Source of the DNA: a virus
Taxonomy: Duplodnaviria; Heunggongvirae; Uroviricota; Caudoviricetes; Drexlerviridae
DNA: 4,116 nucleotides
Virus record (IMG/VR): IMGVR_UViG_2579778786_000003
Direction: 5' to 3' (one strand)
Shown here piece by piece: positions 206 to 4,116 of this stretch. The first letter of the stretch is position 1, and each line of letters starts with the position of its first letter. The translations under genes and the position numbers were made by a program. The notes beneath the pieces were generated by a model. The model was not told the DNA's origin and searched no databases. It saw only the letters and a program-made list of their open reading frames with translations.

Positions 206-225
206 CATGCCCCACCCATGCCCCA
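206..225. repeat. Tandem direct repeat, 2 x CATGCCCCA separated by CC
   Basis: Plus strand 206..214 CATGCCCCA, 215..216 CC, 217..225 CATGCCCCA. It lies between the gene B stop (266) and the stf C-terminal fragment, next to an AT-rich tract. Confidence 0.6.
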
Positions 226-265
226 AGAGGCCTGCCACGCGAAATCTCCCATCAATTGACAGCAA

Positions 266-583
266 CTAAACAACCGCATTGTCCTGGCGCACATCGCAGA
301 TAGTAAACGTCACGACGCCGATGACATTAACATCGTCCAAGGCCTCGCCCTCGATCGCTTCGCCATCTTCGGTAATCAGCGACTTTCCTCTCAGCGTGGC
401 AAGCTCCGTCCCGCCGCCGTGCTGGATCAGAACCTGACTACCTTGTGATGGCTTCAGGGAGATATCCAGCACAACGTAACCGCCTGAACGCTCGAAGAGG
501 CGCGTATTTGGCCCAACACTGCAGATCGAGTTAACCGTTAATCGCTGTTCCGTGTAGTCCGTCGCCGGTGATGGAAAGCCCAT
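266..583 (-). CDS. Hypothetical acidic protein (105 aa), second gene of the coupled operon
   Basis: ATG at 583..581 is preceded by GGGGAGGA (598..591) with a 7-nt spacer, embedded in the 3' end of the upstream gene. It runs 105 codons to TAG at 268..266. Protein: MGFPSPATDYTEQRLTVNSICSVGPNTRLFERSGGYVVLDISLKPSQGSQVLIQHGGGTELATLRGKSLITEDGEAIEGEALDDVNVIGVVTFTICDVRQDNAVV. Net acidic, no signal peptide or transmembrane segment apparent. The ORF track uses an upstream GTG (616) that would overlap the first gene by 34 nt; ATG 583 is preferred. Confidence 0.65.
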   Translation of the reverse strand: MGFPSPATDYTEQRLTVNSICSVGPNTRLFERSGGYVVLDISLKPSQGSQVLIQHGGGTELATLRGKSLITEDGEAIEGEALDDVNVIGVVTFTICDVRQDNAVV

Positions 584-822
584 TACAGAATCCTCCCCAT
601 GTTGGCCATCATCCACAGGCAGTTTTCACTATGCTCTGCCGTTTTGTCGACGAAATACGTTTGCTCGCGTGCGATCCAGGAGTTCGCCTCCACCTCGGAA
701 AAATGGATGCCGCGCCGGCGCAGCGCGGTAACGAAGTCGCGGGTGTGAAGGTACTGGAACCCCTTGGAACTGCGCAATACCGACTCGCGGAACGCCGCTG
801 CGATGTCTGACTGTCGAAGCAT
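583..822 (-). CDS. Hypothetical small basic protein (79 aa), first gene of a translationally coupled two-gene operon downstream of the tail fiber
   Basis: ATG at 822..820 is preceded by GGGAGGG (835..829) with a 6-nt spacer. It runs 79 codons to TAA at 585..583, which overlaps the ATG of the next gene (TAATG). Protein: MLRQSDIAAAFRESVLRSSKGFQYLHTRDFVTALRRRGIHFSEVEANSWIAREQTYFVDKTAEHSENCLWMMANMGRIL. It is Arg-rich with no hydrophobic segment. The ORF track starts this frame at an upstream TTG (837); the ATG with the SD is preferred. Local GC is about 60-65 percent. Confidence 0.65.
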   Translation of the reverse strand: MLRQSDIAAAFRESVLRSSKGFQYLHTRDFVTALRRRGIHFSEVEANSWIAREQTYFVDKTAEHSENCLWMMANMGRIL

Positions 823-834
823 GATCTGCCCTCC

Positions 835-866
835 CAATAATACTGCACAAACATACAGTATTATTG
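835..866. repeat. Perfect 11-bp inverted repeat (CAATAATACTG, 10-nt spacer, CAGTATTATTG) in the stf to gene A intergenic region, abutting the gene A Shine-Dalgarno
   Basis: Plus strand 835..845 is CAATAATACTG and 856..866 is CAGTATTATTG, which are exact reverse complements. On the minus-strand transcript the 3' arm ends at nt 835, which is also the first G of the SD GGGAGGG. Confidence 0.7.
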
Positions 867-893
867 TTGTGAGGGAAGATCAATGTAGGAGTT

Positions 894-3800
894 TTACATT
901 AACTTCAAAACAGCAGAAACGATCGGCAGCCCACCTCCAGTTGCAGGGTCAGGATGGATTCCATCAGCATTGAACCAGTTGCGTGGAGATGTCGATGCGT
1001 AATCAGATGGCTTGTCTCCGTAGTCAATCTGGAGATTGTGATAAGCCACCCTGTTTAGCGCACAAACATCCCGTACAACAGACGCATACGCCGCCATTGC
1101 CACATTGTTATTCCTCTGGTTTTCACATGGCATGATCACCAGAACATCAGCCAACGGGCATGCAGTGCGAACTGCTGTGATTATCGTCTGAATATCGGCA
1201 GCAAACGCGGATGGATCACGGGATGATGTCTGGTCATTGGTCCCATGCAGAATTGTCACCAGATTGGGGGCCAGCGCGGTGAATGCTGCTTTCCATGTTG
1301 CGCTGGTAACCTGCGCCGCCCATTGTTGAGCAGAACTCCCCGTCGCACCCAGCTTGTGAGACCGGACACCATCTGTCGCGGTCTGCACATCCAGACCGTA
1401 CAGTTCAACGGTTCCTGATACCGGACTGAACCAGATATTGAAAGCTGTTGCCGGTACCGTGAGGCTGACAACCGCAAGGTCAGTGAACGTGCTCAGGTCG
1501 ATAGTTGTCCAGTTAACTCCACCATCTGTGCTGTATTTAACACTCCCCTGAGGTTTAGCAAAAAGGCGGACTGACGATGCATTTGCCGGTATACCGTTCG
1601 CCCTGAAAGTAGCGGTGGTATCAGAAGACGAGACGCTACAAATATCTGCGCTCTGTGCTGCCGCATATGTCGGAGTCCATGTTCCTGTTTTGGTCAAAGT
1701 TATCTGACCAAGTATATTGCCGTTATACTGCCCGAAACCCGCCTCAGACGGATAGCCAAATCCGATATAGCCGATACCTGCACTGCCATAGTCAGCCTGC
1801 ATTTTTCCGGCAAAAATTCCGCTCCATCGGTTCCACAGGTGAGTCCAGCTATCGCCAATGTGCGCTGTTACCAGTGTTGCTGACTGAGAAAGCCGCCTGT
1901 TCATCAGGCGCTTATGTGTCTCTCTGAGTGAATCCTGATTTAACGTGAATGCTCTGGAAGTTGTGTAATCGACATCCTGTCGGTACGTATCATCACTCAG
2001 TACAGGAGAGCCATTCCCAACAAAGAGCCCCCTGGCAACAACATAAACACCTGCAGCGCCAACAGTCTGCCCATTCATAAGGCGGATTTGCAGATATCCA
2101 GCCGTATCAACAATAGTCTGGGTGATAGCTATTGTGCGAACCAGAGTCTGATATTGCTGGGTTGGGAACTGGAACAACTGAGACGAACTGTCACTAATAA
2201 CAGTCCCGCTAGCCGTCCGGAAATATGCTGCCACGTTGATTGCCTGAGACGATACCACACCCAGCGCTACTGTCAGCGAATCTCCAGCACGCAGTCCAAG
2301 CCGCTTTGCTGAAATGTTAATATCCGTCTGACCACCACCTACTGGGATAATCAGAGATTTTTTCCTAAGAAACGGGCTGCCAGAATAATCCGCAACATAT
2401 GCTGGTAGTGAAACCCCTGCTACTTGAGCAGGACCCCAACCATCAATACACGTTTCCCCGCACTCGTAGCGGCGATACCAGGGATCAGGCCACAGGTTAA
2501 TCTGCTGGCGCTGGTATCCTGAATACTCTGCTGGAAGGCTACCGTAAATAAACTCAGGGCGAGATCGTCCGAAAGCTACACCTATGGCAACCAGCTCCTT
2601 GACCATAGCCCCTGATGCGCGAAGCGTAAGGTATGTCGTTGATGCTGGTATTGTCAGCGTGGTACTTCCATCATTAAAGCCGGATGCTGATGCGGCAATA
2701 GTTGCCGAAGAAAGTACTCCGGATGCATTACGACAGAAAACCTGAAACGTGCCACCCGTTGACGCGAACCATGCAGCCAGACGGACAGTGATTGTGTCTC
2801 CCGGCTTAACCCCCATCGAACTGAGAGAAATAATACGATCAGCACCAACTCCTGACGTGTTTTGGATCCCGGTCTTACCCCATGGTGAATTTGCGCTGTT
2901 CTGAATCAATGTTCCTGCGTAACTCATGGCGTCAACCACGCCTGCAGGAAGTCCTTGCTTAGGACGAACGGAAAGCATCTCGCCAAAAGGGTCGTACACG
3001 AGGTTATCAGGGGTACCCAATGCCTCCTGGTACGCTTTTGAAGGGAAAGACCTTGTGAATTCAGGAGTAACATCACCAATAGCTGCGGCATAGACACCGA
3101 TTTTGAACGCCCCTGACACAGTGTTTTGCACCCGAATTCGTATGGATGATGCGCCAGATGGCACAGCAATGACCACAACCGGAGAGGATATACCAGCAAC
3201 CAGTGGAGAGGCCTCCCCTGTAGTGATGGTTACTCCTGCTGAATCAAGCCAATAAATCTGTAACTTGCCTCCAGCGTTCTCGAACCATACCAAAACAGAG
3301 AAAGCTAAAGTGTCTCCTGGTTTTATCTGTAATTTTGACACATCGTAATATTTATCAAACGATGTTACACCAGAAGCTTGAATAACAGGTGTTGGAAGCG
3401 GCAAATTAACATCAGTAGTAGAAAATGTTGGCGTAGCGCCTTTATACCAATCCCAGTTAGCGAATGTTAAAAGGCTTGAGGAATATTCATTAAATGCGTC
3501 GAATAAAATGTTGCCTCTACGCAAAGCGGAATACGCTGGAATTTTTCTTCCGGTTGCTACCAACGTACCAGCGGTATTGATAACCTCAATTGAAAGATTA
3601 TTGTCATCTGAGCTGCGATAATAAGCAGTTGATCCCACCGGTATATTACCCGCAGCTGCGTCTGCCTGCGCCGCAGCCAGCGTCGGAAACTCGCGGATTG
3701 TCCCTGTTATGGCTGCCGTGCCTGGCTGCTTTGCCTGCAATACGGCCACGCCAGCATTGTTTTGATACTGCCATGCAGCAGAAAGCGCATCTGGCCCCTG

Positions 3801-4116
3801 AGCTACCCAGAACGACTGGCCGTCAGTAGTTGCTGCCAACCCTGCAATGGTGCCATCAGGATCGCTGGCAGTCTTATAGAACGTGAACTTATTCTGTGCG
3901 TAGTCAGAAGCGTTATTTGCATACTCTTCAGCCTGTGCTGCTGAACCTGCGGCTGCCGTTGCCGATTCGGATGAGGCTGCTGTGTTCTGCGCCACTGCGG
4001 ACGCGTTACGCGCCACCTCTTCCACCATCAGTTCAAAACGGCGCAGTGCCTCCGGACGGGCATCATCCTCCGTCATGGCACCGAGAAAATCATTCAGCGT
4101 ACCGGGTCGGGAATCT
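894..4116 (-). CDS. stf: Side tail fiber protein, 5'-partial (start outside window): lambda Stf-like N-terminal segment, three tandem beta-rich modules, C-terminal SGNH/GDSL hydrolase (putative polysaccharide esterase/deacetylase) domain
   Basis: One uninterrupted minus-strand frame from the window end to TAA at 896..894. The frame stays open upstream of the ORF-track Met at 4076: in-frame codons 4115..4077 read DSRPGTLNDFLGA, so the ATG at 4076 is an internal Met. The segment DSRPGTLNDFLGAMTEDDARPEALRRFELMVEEVARNAS matches my recollection of lambda Stf (...PGTLNDFLCAMTEDDARPEVLRRLELMVEEVARNAS...). The C-terminal ~320 aa carry the SGNH signature blocks (see separate feature). Confidence 0.9.
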   Translation of the reverse strand, partial: DSRPGTLNDFLGAMTEDDARPEALRRFELMVEEVARNASAVAQNTAASSESATAAAGSAAQAEEYANNASDYAQNKFTFYKTASDPDGTIAGLAATTDGQSFWVAQGPDALSAAWQYQNNAGVAVLQAKQPGTAAITGTIREFPTLAAAQADAAAGNIPVGSTAYYRSSDDNNLSIEVINTAGTLVATGRKIPAYSALRRGNILFDAFNEYSSSLLTFANWDWYKGATPTFSTTDVNLPLPTPVIQASGVTSFDKYYDVSKLQIKPGDTLAFSVLVWFENAGGKLQIYWLDSAGVTITTGEASPLVAGISSPVVVIAVPSGASSIRIRVQNTVSGAFKIGVYAAAIGDVTPEFTRSFPSKAYQEALGTPDNLVYDPFGEMLSVRPKQGLPAGVVDAMSYAGTLIQNSANSPWGKTGIQNTSGVGADRIISLSSMGVKPGDTITVRLAAWFASTGGTFQVFCRNASGVLSSATIAASASGFNDGSTTLTIPASTTYLTLRASGAMVKELVAIGVAFGRSRPEFIYGSLPAEYSGYQRQQINLWPDPWYRRYECGETCIDGWGPAQVAGVSLPAYVADYSGSPFLRKKSLIIPVGGGQTDINISAKRLGLRAGDSLTVALGVVSSQAINVAAYFRTASGTVISDSSSQLFQFPTQQYQTLVRTIAITQTIVDTAGYLQIRLMNGQTVGAAGVYVVARGLFVGNGSPVLSDDTYRQDVDYTTSRAFTLNQDSLRETHKRLMNRRLSQSATLVTAHIGDSWTHLWNRWSGIFAGKMQADYGSAGIGYIGFGYPSEAGFGQYNGNILGQITLTKTGTWTPTYAAAQSADICSVSSSDTTATFRANGIPANASSVRLFAKPQGSVKYSTDGGVNWTTIDLSTFTDLAVVSLTVPATAFNIWFSPVSGTVELYGLDVQTATDGVRSHKLGATGSSAQQWAAQVTSATWKAAFTALAPNLVTILHGTNDQTSSRDPSAFAADIQTIITAVRTACPLADVLVIMPCENQRNNNVAMAAYASVVRDVCALNRVAYHNLQIDYGDKPSDYASTSPRNWFNADGIHPDPATGGGLPIVSAVLKLM
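897..1862 (-). other. SGNH/GDSL hydrolase catalytic domain inside the tail fiber CDS
   Basis: Block I HIGDSWTH with the nucleophile Ser codon at 1850..1848 (GDS = 1856..1848). Block III LHGTNDQ (GTND = 1244..1233). Block V NADGIHP (DGIHP = 965..951) a few residues from the C-terminus. The order Ser, Asn, then Asp-x-x-His is canonical for SGNH esterases. All codons were checked by hand against the sequence. Confidence 0.8.
2007..3371 (-). other. Three tandem, diverged ~115-130 aa beta-rich repeat modules within the tail fiber (putative carbohydrate-binding modules)
   Basis: The repeated protein pattern is visible by eye. Module 1 (about nt 3371..3027): VSKLQIKPGDTLAFSVLVWFENAGGKLQIYWLDSAGV ... 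IGDVTPEFTRSFPSKAY. Module 2 (about 2864..2517): LSSMGVKPGDTITVRLAAWFASTGGTFQVFCRNASGV ... FGRSRPEFIYGSLPAEY. Module 3 (about 2354..2007) is weaker: LGLRAGDSLTVALGVV ... AAYFRTASGTV. Boundaries are approximate. Confidence 0.55.

Follow-up and report, generated by a model that had tools for sequence, protein, structure and literature searches.

A predicted Ape1-type O-acetylesterase head with an integral carbohydrate-binding-module-like insert in a lambdoid side tail fibre of Escherichia coli

Introduction

The window analysed here, a 4,116-nt stretch of phage DNA, encodes a protein with an SGNH esterase domain in which, according to a first-pass annotation made from the sequence alone, about 110 aa (1383-1715) are inserted, forming perhaps a notable glycan-recognition lid on the esterase and carrying a single motif of the Asp-box/BNR pattern that is found in sialidases. 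The question raised by this locus is what kind of domain interrupts the esterase, whether the Asp-box has any part in glycan recognition, and what an esterase built in this way would do at the end of a virion fibre.

Results

The tail-fibre gene and its genomic setting

The single long ORF of the window lies on the minus strand (894..4076) and encodes 1060 aa counted from its first ATG, the numbering to which all residues given here refer. The frame check found no stop upstream of this ATG up to the window edge; the frame is still open at the 5′ edge of the window, so its true extent is 894..4116 (Table 1). In the identical prophage of E. coli CFS3313 the complete ORF is uninterrupted, comprises 1152 aa and starts with MAVKISGVLKDG. 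In RefSeq, it is divided between a CDS labelled simply "SGNH/GDSL hydrolase" and a tail-fibre pseudogene for the N-terminal part, an annotation that is corrected by reading one continuous 1152-aa fibre gene. At the N-terminus, aa 1-40 of the ORF match profile positions 93-132 of Pfam phage_tail_N (PF08400), the protein matches PHROG 38670 'tail fiber protein' (E=0), and the gene occupies the Stf slot of a lambdoid prophage, after gpJ and then lom; no NCBIfam model matched the fibre. The protein has the layout of a receptor-binding protein, with a Stf virion-attachment N-terminus and a C-terminal SGNH esterase encoded within a tail gene cluster, and it is rare, being carried by 14 of 5426 complete genomes. 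Upstream of the esterase module, the fibre contains two or three modules of ~150 aa and an A/B repeat, which was recovered by Smith-Waterman alignment with shuffles and was not among the output of a self-BLAST of the fibre, where no internal repeats were printed. In the same alignments, the insert showed no sequence relationship to these upstream modules (z <= 1.6), which ruled out an origin as a displaced copy of one of them.

Table 1. Features of the fibre gene and of its C-terminal module, in positions of the window
Feature	Position (nt)	Strand	Residues and remarks
Side tail fibre gene (lambda Stf-type)	894..4116	-	last 1073 codons + stop (894-896)
C-terminal Ape1-type two-domain O-acetylesterase module (predicted)	897..1961	-	ORF aa 706-1060; SGNH split by beta-sandwich
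SGNH segment 1	1788..1880	-	beta1 aa 733-740, block I GDSWT, helix aa 751-763
Block I GDSWT	1856-1842	-	aa 741-745; nucleophile Ser743
CBM35-like jelly-roll beta-sandwich insert (modelled)	1371..1787	-	aa 764-902, about 11 strands; contains 1383-1715
Long first loop of insert, proposed CBML1 equivalent	1701..1760	-	aa 773-792; N785-G786
Insert marker ILGQITLTKTG	1715-1683	-	aa 788-798
Second loop, proposed CBML2 equivalent	1641..1664	-	aa 805-812; D811, preceding Pro/Ala810
Asp-box-like beta-hairpin	1497..1544	-	strand aa 845-849, turn T850-W856, strand aa 857-860
STDGGVNW	1532-1509	-	aa 849-856
Insert marker VELYGLDVQ	1409-1383	-	aa 890-898
SGNH segment 2	897..1370	-	aa 903-1060; blocks II, III, V
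Block II HKLGATGS	1335-1358	-	aa 907-914
Block III GTND	1244-1233	-	aa 945-948; Asn947
Block V DGIHP	951-965	-	aa 1038-1042; Asp1038 + His1041

An SGNH domain split between blocks I and II

Translation of the ORF placed GDSWT, ILGQITLTKTG, STDGGVNW, VELYGLDVQ and GTND where the first-pass annotation had located them, and all of blocks I, II, III and V of the SGNH superfamily are present. D742 and S743 are conserved in 96% of 52 family clusters, and G913, N947, D948, D1038 and H1041 are invariant or near-invariant among homologues, in agreement with a putative catalytic triad of Ser743, Asp1038 and His1041 and an oxyanion hole that would be formed by the block II Gly and Asn947. Pfam Lipase_GDSL_2 (PF13472) matches above its cut-off (E=5.6e-14), and the AF2 model of the two-domain module (pLDDT 93.6, pTM 0.92) matches TesA, PAF-AH and acetyl xylan esterases among many SGNH structures, in keeping with the alpha/beta/alpha fold of the superfamily and its central parallel sheet.

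The distance between blocks I and III, which had been put at about 160 residues, is in fact 204 residues (S743 to N947). Along the chain, beta1, Ser743 and helix 751-763 are followed by 11 strands (769-899), by a strand at 903-910 and by block II, so that the extra material sits between blocks I and II; the Lipase_GDSL_2 alignment covers only aa 904-1045, corresponding to profile positions 33-174, which gives independent support for a split domain. The presence of an inserted subdomain is thus borne out by the split Pfam alignment, by the all-beta models and by an Ape1-like topology; its extent had been underestimated, as the bounds taken from the structure model give about 135 aa and a start about 24 residues further upstream.

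The insert as a beta-sandwich

The insert is all-beta both in the two-domain model and when modelled in isolation (pLDDT 85.8, pTM 0.83, 11 strands) and, as predicted by these models, it is a discrete inserted beta-sandwich with the fold of a carbohydrate-binding module. It is not a set of long loops, and STDGG lies in a beta-hairpin turn, so that neither of the outcomes that the first-pass annotation had held against its own proposal (an ordinary SGNH core with long loops, and a motif outside a hairpin) was observed. In Foldseek searches with the isolated insert, the best TM-scores were to the CBM35 of CjApe1 (TMq 0.66-0.67); CBM11, CBM6, CBM29 and CBM32, the CE2 N-terminal domain and the CBM-like domains of Cry protoxins were matched as well, with TMq values of 0.5-0.57 for CBM6, CBM11, CBM29 and the Pc1,3Gal43A CBM35, and there was no sialidase or propeller fold among the matches. 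The likeness to CBM35 and CBM6 is one of jelly-roll fold and not of sequence membership: Pfam searches with the insert alone returned no CBM family at E<=10, but only sub-threshold Reelin_subrepeat-B, BNR and DUF7354.

The insert is kept in 24 of 24 homologues and in about 50 representative clusters. The search for the same insertion in other SGNH tail fibres, which had been suggested as a check, was positive for several phages, since phages of Klebsiella, Proteus, Staphylococcus, Arthrobacter and Gordonia also carry the full module in annotated tail fibres, with 36-40% identity to the whole module in the case of the Klebsiella phages.

Homology to Ape1

The two-domain model matches NmApe1 (4k3u) with TM 0.79/0.80 and E 6e-19 to 1e-19, and CjApe1 (8gkd/8gld) with TM 0.76; overall, the Foldseek matches to Ape1 extend over about 350 residues at TM 0.76-0.80 and E 1e-19 to 9e-18, and the next matches (CE2 and others) are down at TM about 0.3. 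Identity to Ape1 is only 11-17%. Single-sequence phmmer searches of the PDB with the full ORF or the C-terminal 355 aa gave nothing meaningful, and Ape1 was reached only with a 25-sequence profile; the alignment of the family profile to 4k3u (E=1.8e-12, profile positions 223-546, chain residues 31-341) spans GDS, the insert including its 'NGGGW' hairpin, and blocks II-III. In NmApe, catalytic residues 45-99 and 227-393 flank a sandwich at 104-221 (PMC6174289), and in CjApe1 helix alpha2 is separated from strand beta14 by the CBM35 (I94-T222) (10.1101/2021.09.23.461501). The module studied here has the same layout, with the insert placed after the helix that follows block I and before the strand that precedes block II, and its similarity to Ape1, an enzyme that 'remains CAZy-unclassified' (PMC9487903), runs across both domains. 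The architecture is accordingly not notable in itself: it is that published for Ape1 (PMC9487903, PMC6174289), Ape1-like SGNH modules have already been described from tail proteins of phages and prophages (PMC8471582, PMC12115436), and no new architecture or mechanism is involved.

Insert loops and the catalytic core

The most conserved residues of the insert, N785-G786 (87-88% of the 52 clusters) and the near-invariant D811 (98%), which follows a position occupied by Pro in 92% of the clusters, are all located in two loops, and the NGN of the first loop aligns with 'HNGNW' of NmApe1 in the profile match. Both loops are modelled with more confidence in the presence of the SGNH core, pLDDT being 57-59 in the isolated insert and 82-88 in the two-domain model for aa 773-792, and 75 and about 95, respectively, for aa 805-812; this gap was taken as a proxy for contact of the loops with the core. 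In CjApe1, the equivalent domain has two loops that adjoin the active site (bioRxiv 10.1101/2021.09.23.461501); named CBML1 and CBML2, they stabilise the oxyanion hole, and the substitutions Q105A, N121A and R123A lower activity to 34-60% (10.1101/2021.09.23.461501). The equivalence of the two loops to CBML1 and CBML2 is proposed from chain order, conservation and pLDDT behaviour rather than from superposition. By analogy with the solved Ape1 structures, the sandwich would be rigidly packed on the catalytic domain, and its two loops may brace the loop of the oxyanion hole and serve as one side of a polysaccharide groove; the insert would then belong integrally to the enzyme, shaping and positioning the glycan substrate, rather than being a free-standing lectin. 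The CjApe1 CBM35 is without the canonical Ca2+ and sugar-binding residues (10.1101/2021.09.23.461501), and as no sugar site is known for the CBM35 of Ape1, the shaping of a glycan groove is hypothetical for the reference enzyme too.

The Asp-box and its hairpin

The motif fits the S-x-D-x-G-x-x-W pattern, as had been claimed, and with its BNR-like flanks it reads K-Y-S-T-D-G-G-V-N-W, in agreement with the Asp-box consensus x-x-(S/t)-x-(D/n)-x-G-x-(T/s)-(W/f/y) (PMC2716378) except for an Asn at the T/s position. Judged by sequence statistics, it is more than chance: the strict pattern S.D.G..W appeared in only 0.75% of shuffles of the protein (7.9% for a relaxed pattern), which speaks against the earlier reservation that a single occurrence might be coincidental. 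With the insert alone as query, phmmer recruited multi-repeat Asp-box propeller proteins solely via the hairpin segment, and Pfam BNR reached 12.8-13.6 bits (cut-off 27), a sub-threshold score that is expected because there is a single copy. The protein holds one Asp-box, embedded in a jelly roll and not in the repeats of a propeller, and for these two reasons a sialidase or propeller relationship was rejected.

The hairpin is predicted in both models, with a pLDDT of about 96-97 in isolation and in context; unlike that of the two loops, its pLDDT is unaffected by removal of the SGNH core. Y848, G853 and W856 are 90-94% conserved, S849 is replaced by Arg in most homologues, and the full Asp-box pattern occurs in 12 of the 52 clusters, the majority variant being one residue shorter (Y-R-x-[ND]-G-G-x-W); the hairpin S-A-N-G-G-G-W of NmApe1 aligns with the motif in the profile match. 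STDGGVNW is best described as a self-contained structural hairpin, one of two interchangeable versions within the family, in agreement with the view that the conserved residues of an Asp-box serve its own hairpin fold and that it is 'highly unlikely to be involved in ligand binding' (Quistgaard & Thirup, PMC2716378). Single Asp-boxes are known in jelly-roll sandwiches, where they often mediate domain-domain contacts (PMC2716378). Of the glycan-recognition lid first proposed, the carbohydrate-binding-module fold and, in CjApe1, the position of the loops by the active site stand, whereas the Asp-box has to be given up as evidence of recognition, both on the published analysis (PMC2716378) and because only 12 of 52 clusters have it.

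As a separate observation, a simple strand-parity argument would place the hairpin at the end of the sandwich that is shared with the SGNH junction.

Discussion

Taken together, we conclude with good confidence that the last 355 residues of the fibre are an Ape1-type O-acetylesterase head in which the CBM35-like insert (~135 aa) is integral and the hairpin structural, and which would deacetylate a surface polysaccharide at adsorption. The fibre would bind an O-acetylated surface polysaccharide of E. coli, of O-antigen or capsule type, and remove acetyl groups from it. Deacetylation of such a polysaccharide is the most likely activity by analogy with G7C gp63.1 and Acinetobacter phage Aristophanes gp41, SGNH proteins of phages for which removal of acetyl groups from surface glycans has experimental precedent (PMC8471582, PMC13123978). 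The substrate suggested here also takes into account that E. coli peptidoglycan is not O-acetylated (PMC6174289), which makes a surface polysaccharide the likelier target.

The main alternative would be that the insert acts as an autonomous lectin, as in influenza C virus HEF or coronavirus HE, with a site apart from the esterase pocket that sets host specificity and an SGNH domain that is only receptor-destroying. The insert is indeed a CBM-type jelly roll, receptor binding is what a tail fibre such as this protein is for, and in HE/HEF specificity is ascribed to a receptor-binding domain of jelly-roll fold that accompanies the SGNH esterase (PMC9487903). Nevertheless, the nearest relatives by far are the Ape1 enzymes and not HE/HEF, the CBM35 of CjApe1 lacks canonical Ca2+ and sugar residues and works via loops that support catalysis, and the residues most conserved in the insert, across phages of very different hosts, fall in loops that appear to pack on the core, which is the opposite of the pattern for a host-specific lectin site; in addition, the upstream ~150-aa modules are better candidates for variable binding. 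An autonomous lectin is, in consequence, unlikely. Still less probable is a bolder variant, restricted to the minority subclade with the full Asp-box (12 of 52 clusters, this fibre included), in which Ser849 and the longer G-x-x-W turn would have made the hairpin newly functional as an inter-subunit contact among the three esterase heads of a trimeric fibre or as a secondary glycan-binding platform, the insert then being lectin plus lid as in influenza C HEF.

A role of the module as a genuine peptidoglycan O-acetylesterase, which would de-O-acetylate murein at genome injection, is very improbable. The closest solved relatives, NmApe1 and CjApe1, do have this activity, and related modules occur in tail/neck proteins of Staphylococcus phages, whose hosts O-acetylate peptidoglycan (PMC6174289); however, the substrate is rejected for E. 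coli on the composition of its peptidoglycan (PMC6174289), a domain located distally on a side tail fibre makes contact with the surface of the cell rather than with the periplasm, and the Ape1-like phage tailspikes tested so far deacetylate capsule (PMC8471582). That the Asp-box itself contacts carbohydrate as a sialidase-like or glycan-active site, which its pattern, its flanks resembling true BNR repeats and the many glycosidases among Asp-box proteins (PMC2716378) could suggest, is scarcely credible and already largely refuted by its single copy in a jelly roll rather than a propeller, the structural service of its conserved residues (PMC2716378), the Ser to Arg replacement and one-residue-shorter loop of most family members, and the sub-threshold BNR score.

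With the Ape1-type esterase as the preferred reading, the distal head of a rare lambdoid side tail fibre of E. coli obtains an annotation, and the prophage is predicted to recognise or modify an O-acetylated surface polysaccharide, which would add an E. coli example to the growing body of evidence that temperate phages often engage surface glycans by deacetylation and not by depolymerisation (PMC13123978). S743, N785, D811 and the D851/W856 hairpin are candidate residues for testing.

Comparison with known systems

Ape1 of N. meningitidis (4k3u/4k40/4k7j/4k9s) and C. jejuni (8gkd/8gld) has the same SGNH domain split by a CBM35-like sandwich of about 120-135 aa, but it is a free periplasmic enzyme that belongs to the patA/patB/ape O-acetyl-peptidoglycan cluster and acts on the 6-O-acetyl of MurNAc, whereas the module described here forms the C-terminal head of a side tail fibre of 1152 aa, and its host has no O-acetylated peptidoglycan. 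It is not a periplasmic enzyme encoded with patA/patB; no OAP cluster lies beside the gene, whose neighbourhood consists of lambdoid prophage tail genes. Because of the tail-fibre context and the E. coli peptidoglycan, it is filed as a homologous module of the same architecture and not as an orthologue of the peptidoglycan esterases.

The singly occurring Asp-box hairpins of reelin subrepeats and of the C-terminal domains of chitobiase and sulfite oxidase are likewise one surface-exposed structural hairpin in a jelly-roll or Ig-like sandwich (PMC2716378); the weak Pfam match of Reelin_subrepeat-B over the hairpin residues (E=0.027) does not establish homology to these single-Asp-box sandwiches and, unlike in them, the Asp-box here alternates within the family with a shorter, Arg-containing hairpin. 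In the HE/HEF proteins of influenza C virus, toroviruses and coronaviruses, which are exposed on the virion surface, a receptor-destroying SGNH esterase is likewise combined with a carbohydrate-binding domain of jelly-roll fold (PMC9487903); the resemblance is limited to the design, as there is no detectable sequence or top-ranking structural similarity to the module.

Among phages, the E. coli tailspike G7C gp63.1 is an SGNH esterase that deacetylates O-antigen without depolymerising it, a step on which infection depends (summarised in PMC13123978); it is absent from the best 50 structural neighbours of the module in Foldseek, which points to a different SGNH subtype and a functional analogy only. 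Further phage counterparts are gp41 of Acinetobacter phage Aristophanes and tail proteins of Klebsiella prophages, the SGNH domain of which is most similar to NmApe1 (4K7J) and CjApe1 (8GKD) (PMC8471582, PMC12115436); gp41 takes one O-acetyl group off the K26 capsule and is required for adsorption (PMC8471582, PMC12115436). Those proteins serve other hosts and carry other N-terminal virion adaptors; the fibre described here presents its predicted esterase on a lambda Stf N-terminus, in a lambdoid prophage of E. coli.

A carbohydrate-binding-module fold inserted in the predicted esterase head

The sequence landmarks picked out by the first-pass annotation all lie exactly where it placed them, and the extra subdomain that it proposed inside the SGNH domain is real, with adjusted boundaries; since the extra material precedes block II, the insertion lies between blocks I and II. 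The spacing from block I to block III is indeed longer than in minimal SGNH esterases, although the true count is 204 residues rather than ~160. In minimal SGNH enzymes such as E. coli TesA/TAP, some 60 residues separate the Ser of block I from the Asn of block III, which leaves ~140 as surplus here. The split of the SGNH domain is independently apparent from the Pfam GDSL model, as this aligns only with aa 904–1045 (profile positions 33–174) and leaves block I stranded ~160 residues upstream. Homologues at 25–55% identity span 97–99% of the C-terminal 355 aa, and the insertion is therefore a conserved part of the family.

The family profile of the homologues matches the N. meningitidis peptidoglycan O-acetylesterase NmApe1 (PDB 4k3u; E=1.8e-12) in an alignment unbroken across GDS, the insertion, and blocks II–III. 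In the AlphaFold2 model of aa 706–1060 (pLDDT 93.6, pTM 0.92), SGNH strand β1 is followed by Ser743, helix 751–763, eleven β-strands (aa 769–899), SGNH strand 903–910, and block II; this order agrees with the published Ape1 topology, where NmApe has catalytic residues 45–99 and 227–393 and a β-sandwich resembling CBM35 at 104–221 (PMC6174289), and the C. jejuni enzyme, CjApe1, has its CBM35 at I94–T222, between helix α2 and strand β14 (10.1101/2021.09.23.461501). The whole two-domain model superposes in Foldseek on NmApe1 (TM 0.79–0.80) and CjApe1 (TM 0.76), the remaining SGNH structures giving a one-domain match or another domain arrangement (TM ~0.3). The discrete inserted domain sought by structure prediction is a CBM-fold domain that folds even without the SGNH core (aa 764–902 modelled alone, pTM 0.83); its best match is the CjApe1 CBM35 (TM 0.66–0.67), followed by CBM11, CBM6, CBM29, CBM35, and CBM32, and it also resembles the CE2 N-terminal domain and the CBM-like domains of Cry protoxins. 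Judged from the model, the structural neighbors of the isolated insert are jelly-roll carbohydrate-binding modules, and no sialidase or propeller was matched among them.

The Asp-box-like hairpin

The fit of STDGGVNW to the Asp-box pattern might be put down to chance; this is disfavored by the occurrence of the strict pattern in only 0.75% of shuffles of the fiber protein, and by a phmmer search with the insert alone (1.8 billion representatives), which retrieved multi-repeat Asp-box propeller proteins via the motif segment, all six matches checked containing Sortilin-Vps10 or BNR-type repeat families. The motif is thus a genuine Asp-box-like sequence and no regular-expression accident. In both models the motif is in a β-hairpin, as the turn joining strands 845–849 and 857–860 (pLDDT ~96).

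The observation of the first-pass annotation holds with adjusted boundaries, and its suggestion of a glycan-recognition lid is half right: the insert is a discrete domain with a CBM fold, probably next to the active site, but the Asp-box is not its recognition signature. The full pattern is present in 12 of 52 representative clusters, most others having Y-R-x-[ND]-G-G-x-W; of the 24 closest homologues, 22 carry Arg instead of Ser together with a Gly-to-Trp spacing shortened by one residue. Y848, D/N, G853, and W856, conserved across the hairpin versions, are the residues holding the hairpin together; according to Quistgaard and Thirup, conserved Asp-box residues all support their own hairpin and are 'highly unlikely to be involved in ligand binding', and single Asp-boxes are known in jelly-roll and Ig-like sandwiches, surface-exposed and sometimes aiding domain–domain contacts (PMC2716378). 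The aligned position of NmApe1, S-A-N-G-G-G-W, fits the 'short Asp-box' pattern of these authors. The model confidence of the hairpin stays high without the SGNH core, unlike that of loops aa 773–792 and 805–812. This family variability, the published structural role, and the core-independent confidence undercut a functional reading: the Asp-box is a structural hairpin, not a glycan-recognition signature.

Two co-varying hairpin versions occur in the insert family (window 1509–1532, minus strand; homologues P0029–P0098): in 12 of the 13 clusters that have Ser at Asp-box position 3 the turn is G-x-x-W, and Arg is paired with a G-x-W turn shorter by one residue, in raw cluster counts uncorrected for relatedness.

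Active site and insert loops

The catalytic residues, namely Ser743, the Gly of block II, Asn947, and Asp1038-x-x-His1041, are all intact and conserved. In CjApe1, the long CBM35 loops CBML1 and CBML2 adjoin the active cleft and form hydrogen bonds with the oxyanion-hole loop, and Q105, N121, or R123 mutants fall to 34–60% activity (10.1101/2021.09.23.461501). The loops at the equivalent points along the chain of the fiber head, aa 773–792 and 805–812, contain N785-G786 and D811, the most strongly conserved residues of the insert, with the NGN aligned to HNGNW of NmApe1, and are the only insert parts whose pLDDT collapses without the SGNH domain (57–59 and 75, respectively, vs 82–95 in context). 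Chain position, conservation, and pLDDT loss suggest that both loops pack on the catalytic domain, where they would have a buttressing and groove-forming role like that of CBML1 and CBML2.

Fiber gene and genomic setting

Prophage DNA in the chromosomes of several E. coli strains, e.g., CFS3313, matches the 4116-base window at 100% identity, and at least 80% of the window is found in only 14 of 5426 complete genomes. The identical CFS3313 locus has one unbroken 1152-aa ORF starting with the lambda Stf N-terminus MAVKISGVLKDG... (full-length numbering = window-ORF residue + 92). The gene directly follows gpJ and lom, the side-tail-fiber slot of a lambdoid prophage; aa 1–40 of the ORF are the end of the prophage tail-fiber N-terminal domain (Pfam), and PHROGs places the protein in a 'tail fiber protein' family. 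RefSeq/PGAP has two features instead of one at window 894–4116 (−), or L001 12001–15459, namely a protein of 816 aa named 'SGNH/GDSL hydrolase family protein' and, N-terminal to it, a pseudogene labelled 'prophage tail fiber N-terminal domain' and flagged as without C-terminus; since the DNA encodes a single uninterrupted Stf-type fiber, this split is an annotation artefact.

Coordinates of the fiber gene, its motifs and modules, and neighboring features
Feature	Window (nt)	Residues (aa)	Strand	Remark
Main ORF	894..4076	1060 aa from first ATG	-	frame still open at 5′ window edge
GDSWT (block I)	1856-1842	741-745	-	motif mapping on ORF
ILGQITLTKTG	1715-1683	788-798	-	motif mapping on ORF
STDGGVNW	1532-1509	849-856	-	motif mapping on ORF
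VELYGLDVQ	1409-1383	890-898	-	motif mapping on ORF
HKLGATGS (block II)		907-914	-	after the extra material
GTND (block III)		945-948	-	motif mapping on ORF
Module A	2985-3428	217-364	-	~150 aa; between Stf N-terminus and esterase head
Module B	2478-2912	389-533	-	~150 aa; tandem with module A
Module C	1932-2441	about 546-715	-	weaker third copy; Smith-Waterman
Small ORF	583-837	79-84 aa	-	MLRQSDIAAAFRESV...; immediately downstream of fiber gene
Putative UmuD′-like ORF	about 266-582	105 aa	-	begins M-GFPSPATDY...
Tail-fiber shaft remnant	1 to about 110		-	reads ...GTHAHTVGIGAHTHSVAIG; stops precede, without N-terminus

Modules A and B each have a 'KPGDT...WF..GG..Q' core. Smith–Waterman comparison against shuffles gave z=16 for A–B and z=3.5 for B–C; the upstream modules match no Pfam family and are unrelated in sequence to the insert. 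They may be binding domains of β-sandwich fold that actually determine specificity. A stretch within the N-terminal third of the fiber (window 3148–3714) has 84% nucleotide identity to a 'tail spike protein' gene of Klebsiella phage vB_KpnM_NDO71 (136 kb), which suggests modular exchange of fiber segments between unrelated phage types.

An older stf gene appears to have had its distal part replaced by the esterase-fiber cassette, with its 3′ end and tfa still in place; the genome annotation gives the remnant as N-terminally truncated and followed by a tail fiber assembly gene. The remnant has a His-x-His repeat typical of distal tail-fiber shafts. The small ORF, with no family match in NCBIfam, is kept adjacent to the UmuD′-like gene in Klebsiella phages. 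The 105-aa ORF looks like a pre-processed UmuD′-like (HumD-like) gene carried beside the fiber gene; its match to NCBIfam HumD is sub-threshold (E=1e-10, 41.7 bits, cut-off 120), and some records label it 'S24/S26 family peptidase' or 'UmuD'. Its start is at the position of UmuD cleavage to UmuD′ and overlaps the stop of the upstream ORF as TAATG.

Distribution and predicted substrate

The insertion is widespread in other SGNH tail fibers: 35 phage GenBank records, mostly annotated as tail fiber proteins, have the module at a coverage of at least 80%, and the insert is present in about 50 clusters (50%-identity level). Predicted phage structures with the complete module, insert included, are those of Proteus phage Mydo (TM 0.93), the Klebsiella phage Sin4 tail fiber, and Gordonia, Arthrobacter, and Rhodococcus minor tail proteins. 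The fiber-head architecture is the already-solved Ape1 layout, already noticed in phage receptor-binding proteins, and the value of the analysis lies mainly in annotation and in the prediction that the prophage targets an O-acetylated surface glycan. E. coli peptidoglycan is not O-acetylated (PMC6174289) and the esterase domain is at the distal end of the side tail fiber, which together make an O-acetylated surface polysaccharide far more likely than peptidoglycan as the predicted substrate.

Direct precedents are provided by three systems. In PMC13123978, G7C gp63.1 is described as deacetylating the O-antigen, a step essential for infection, and two SGNH fibers of Klebsiella prophages as active esterases; gp41 of Acinetobacter phage Aristophanes, whose SGNH domain was modelled on NmApe1 (4K7J), strips one O-acetyl group from the K26 capsule and is needed for adsorption (PMC8471582).
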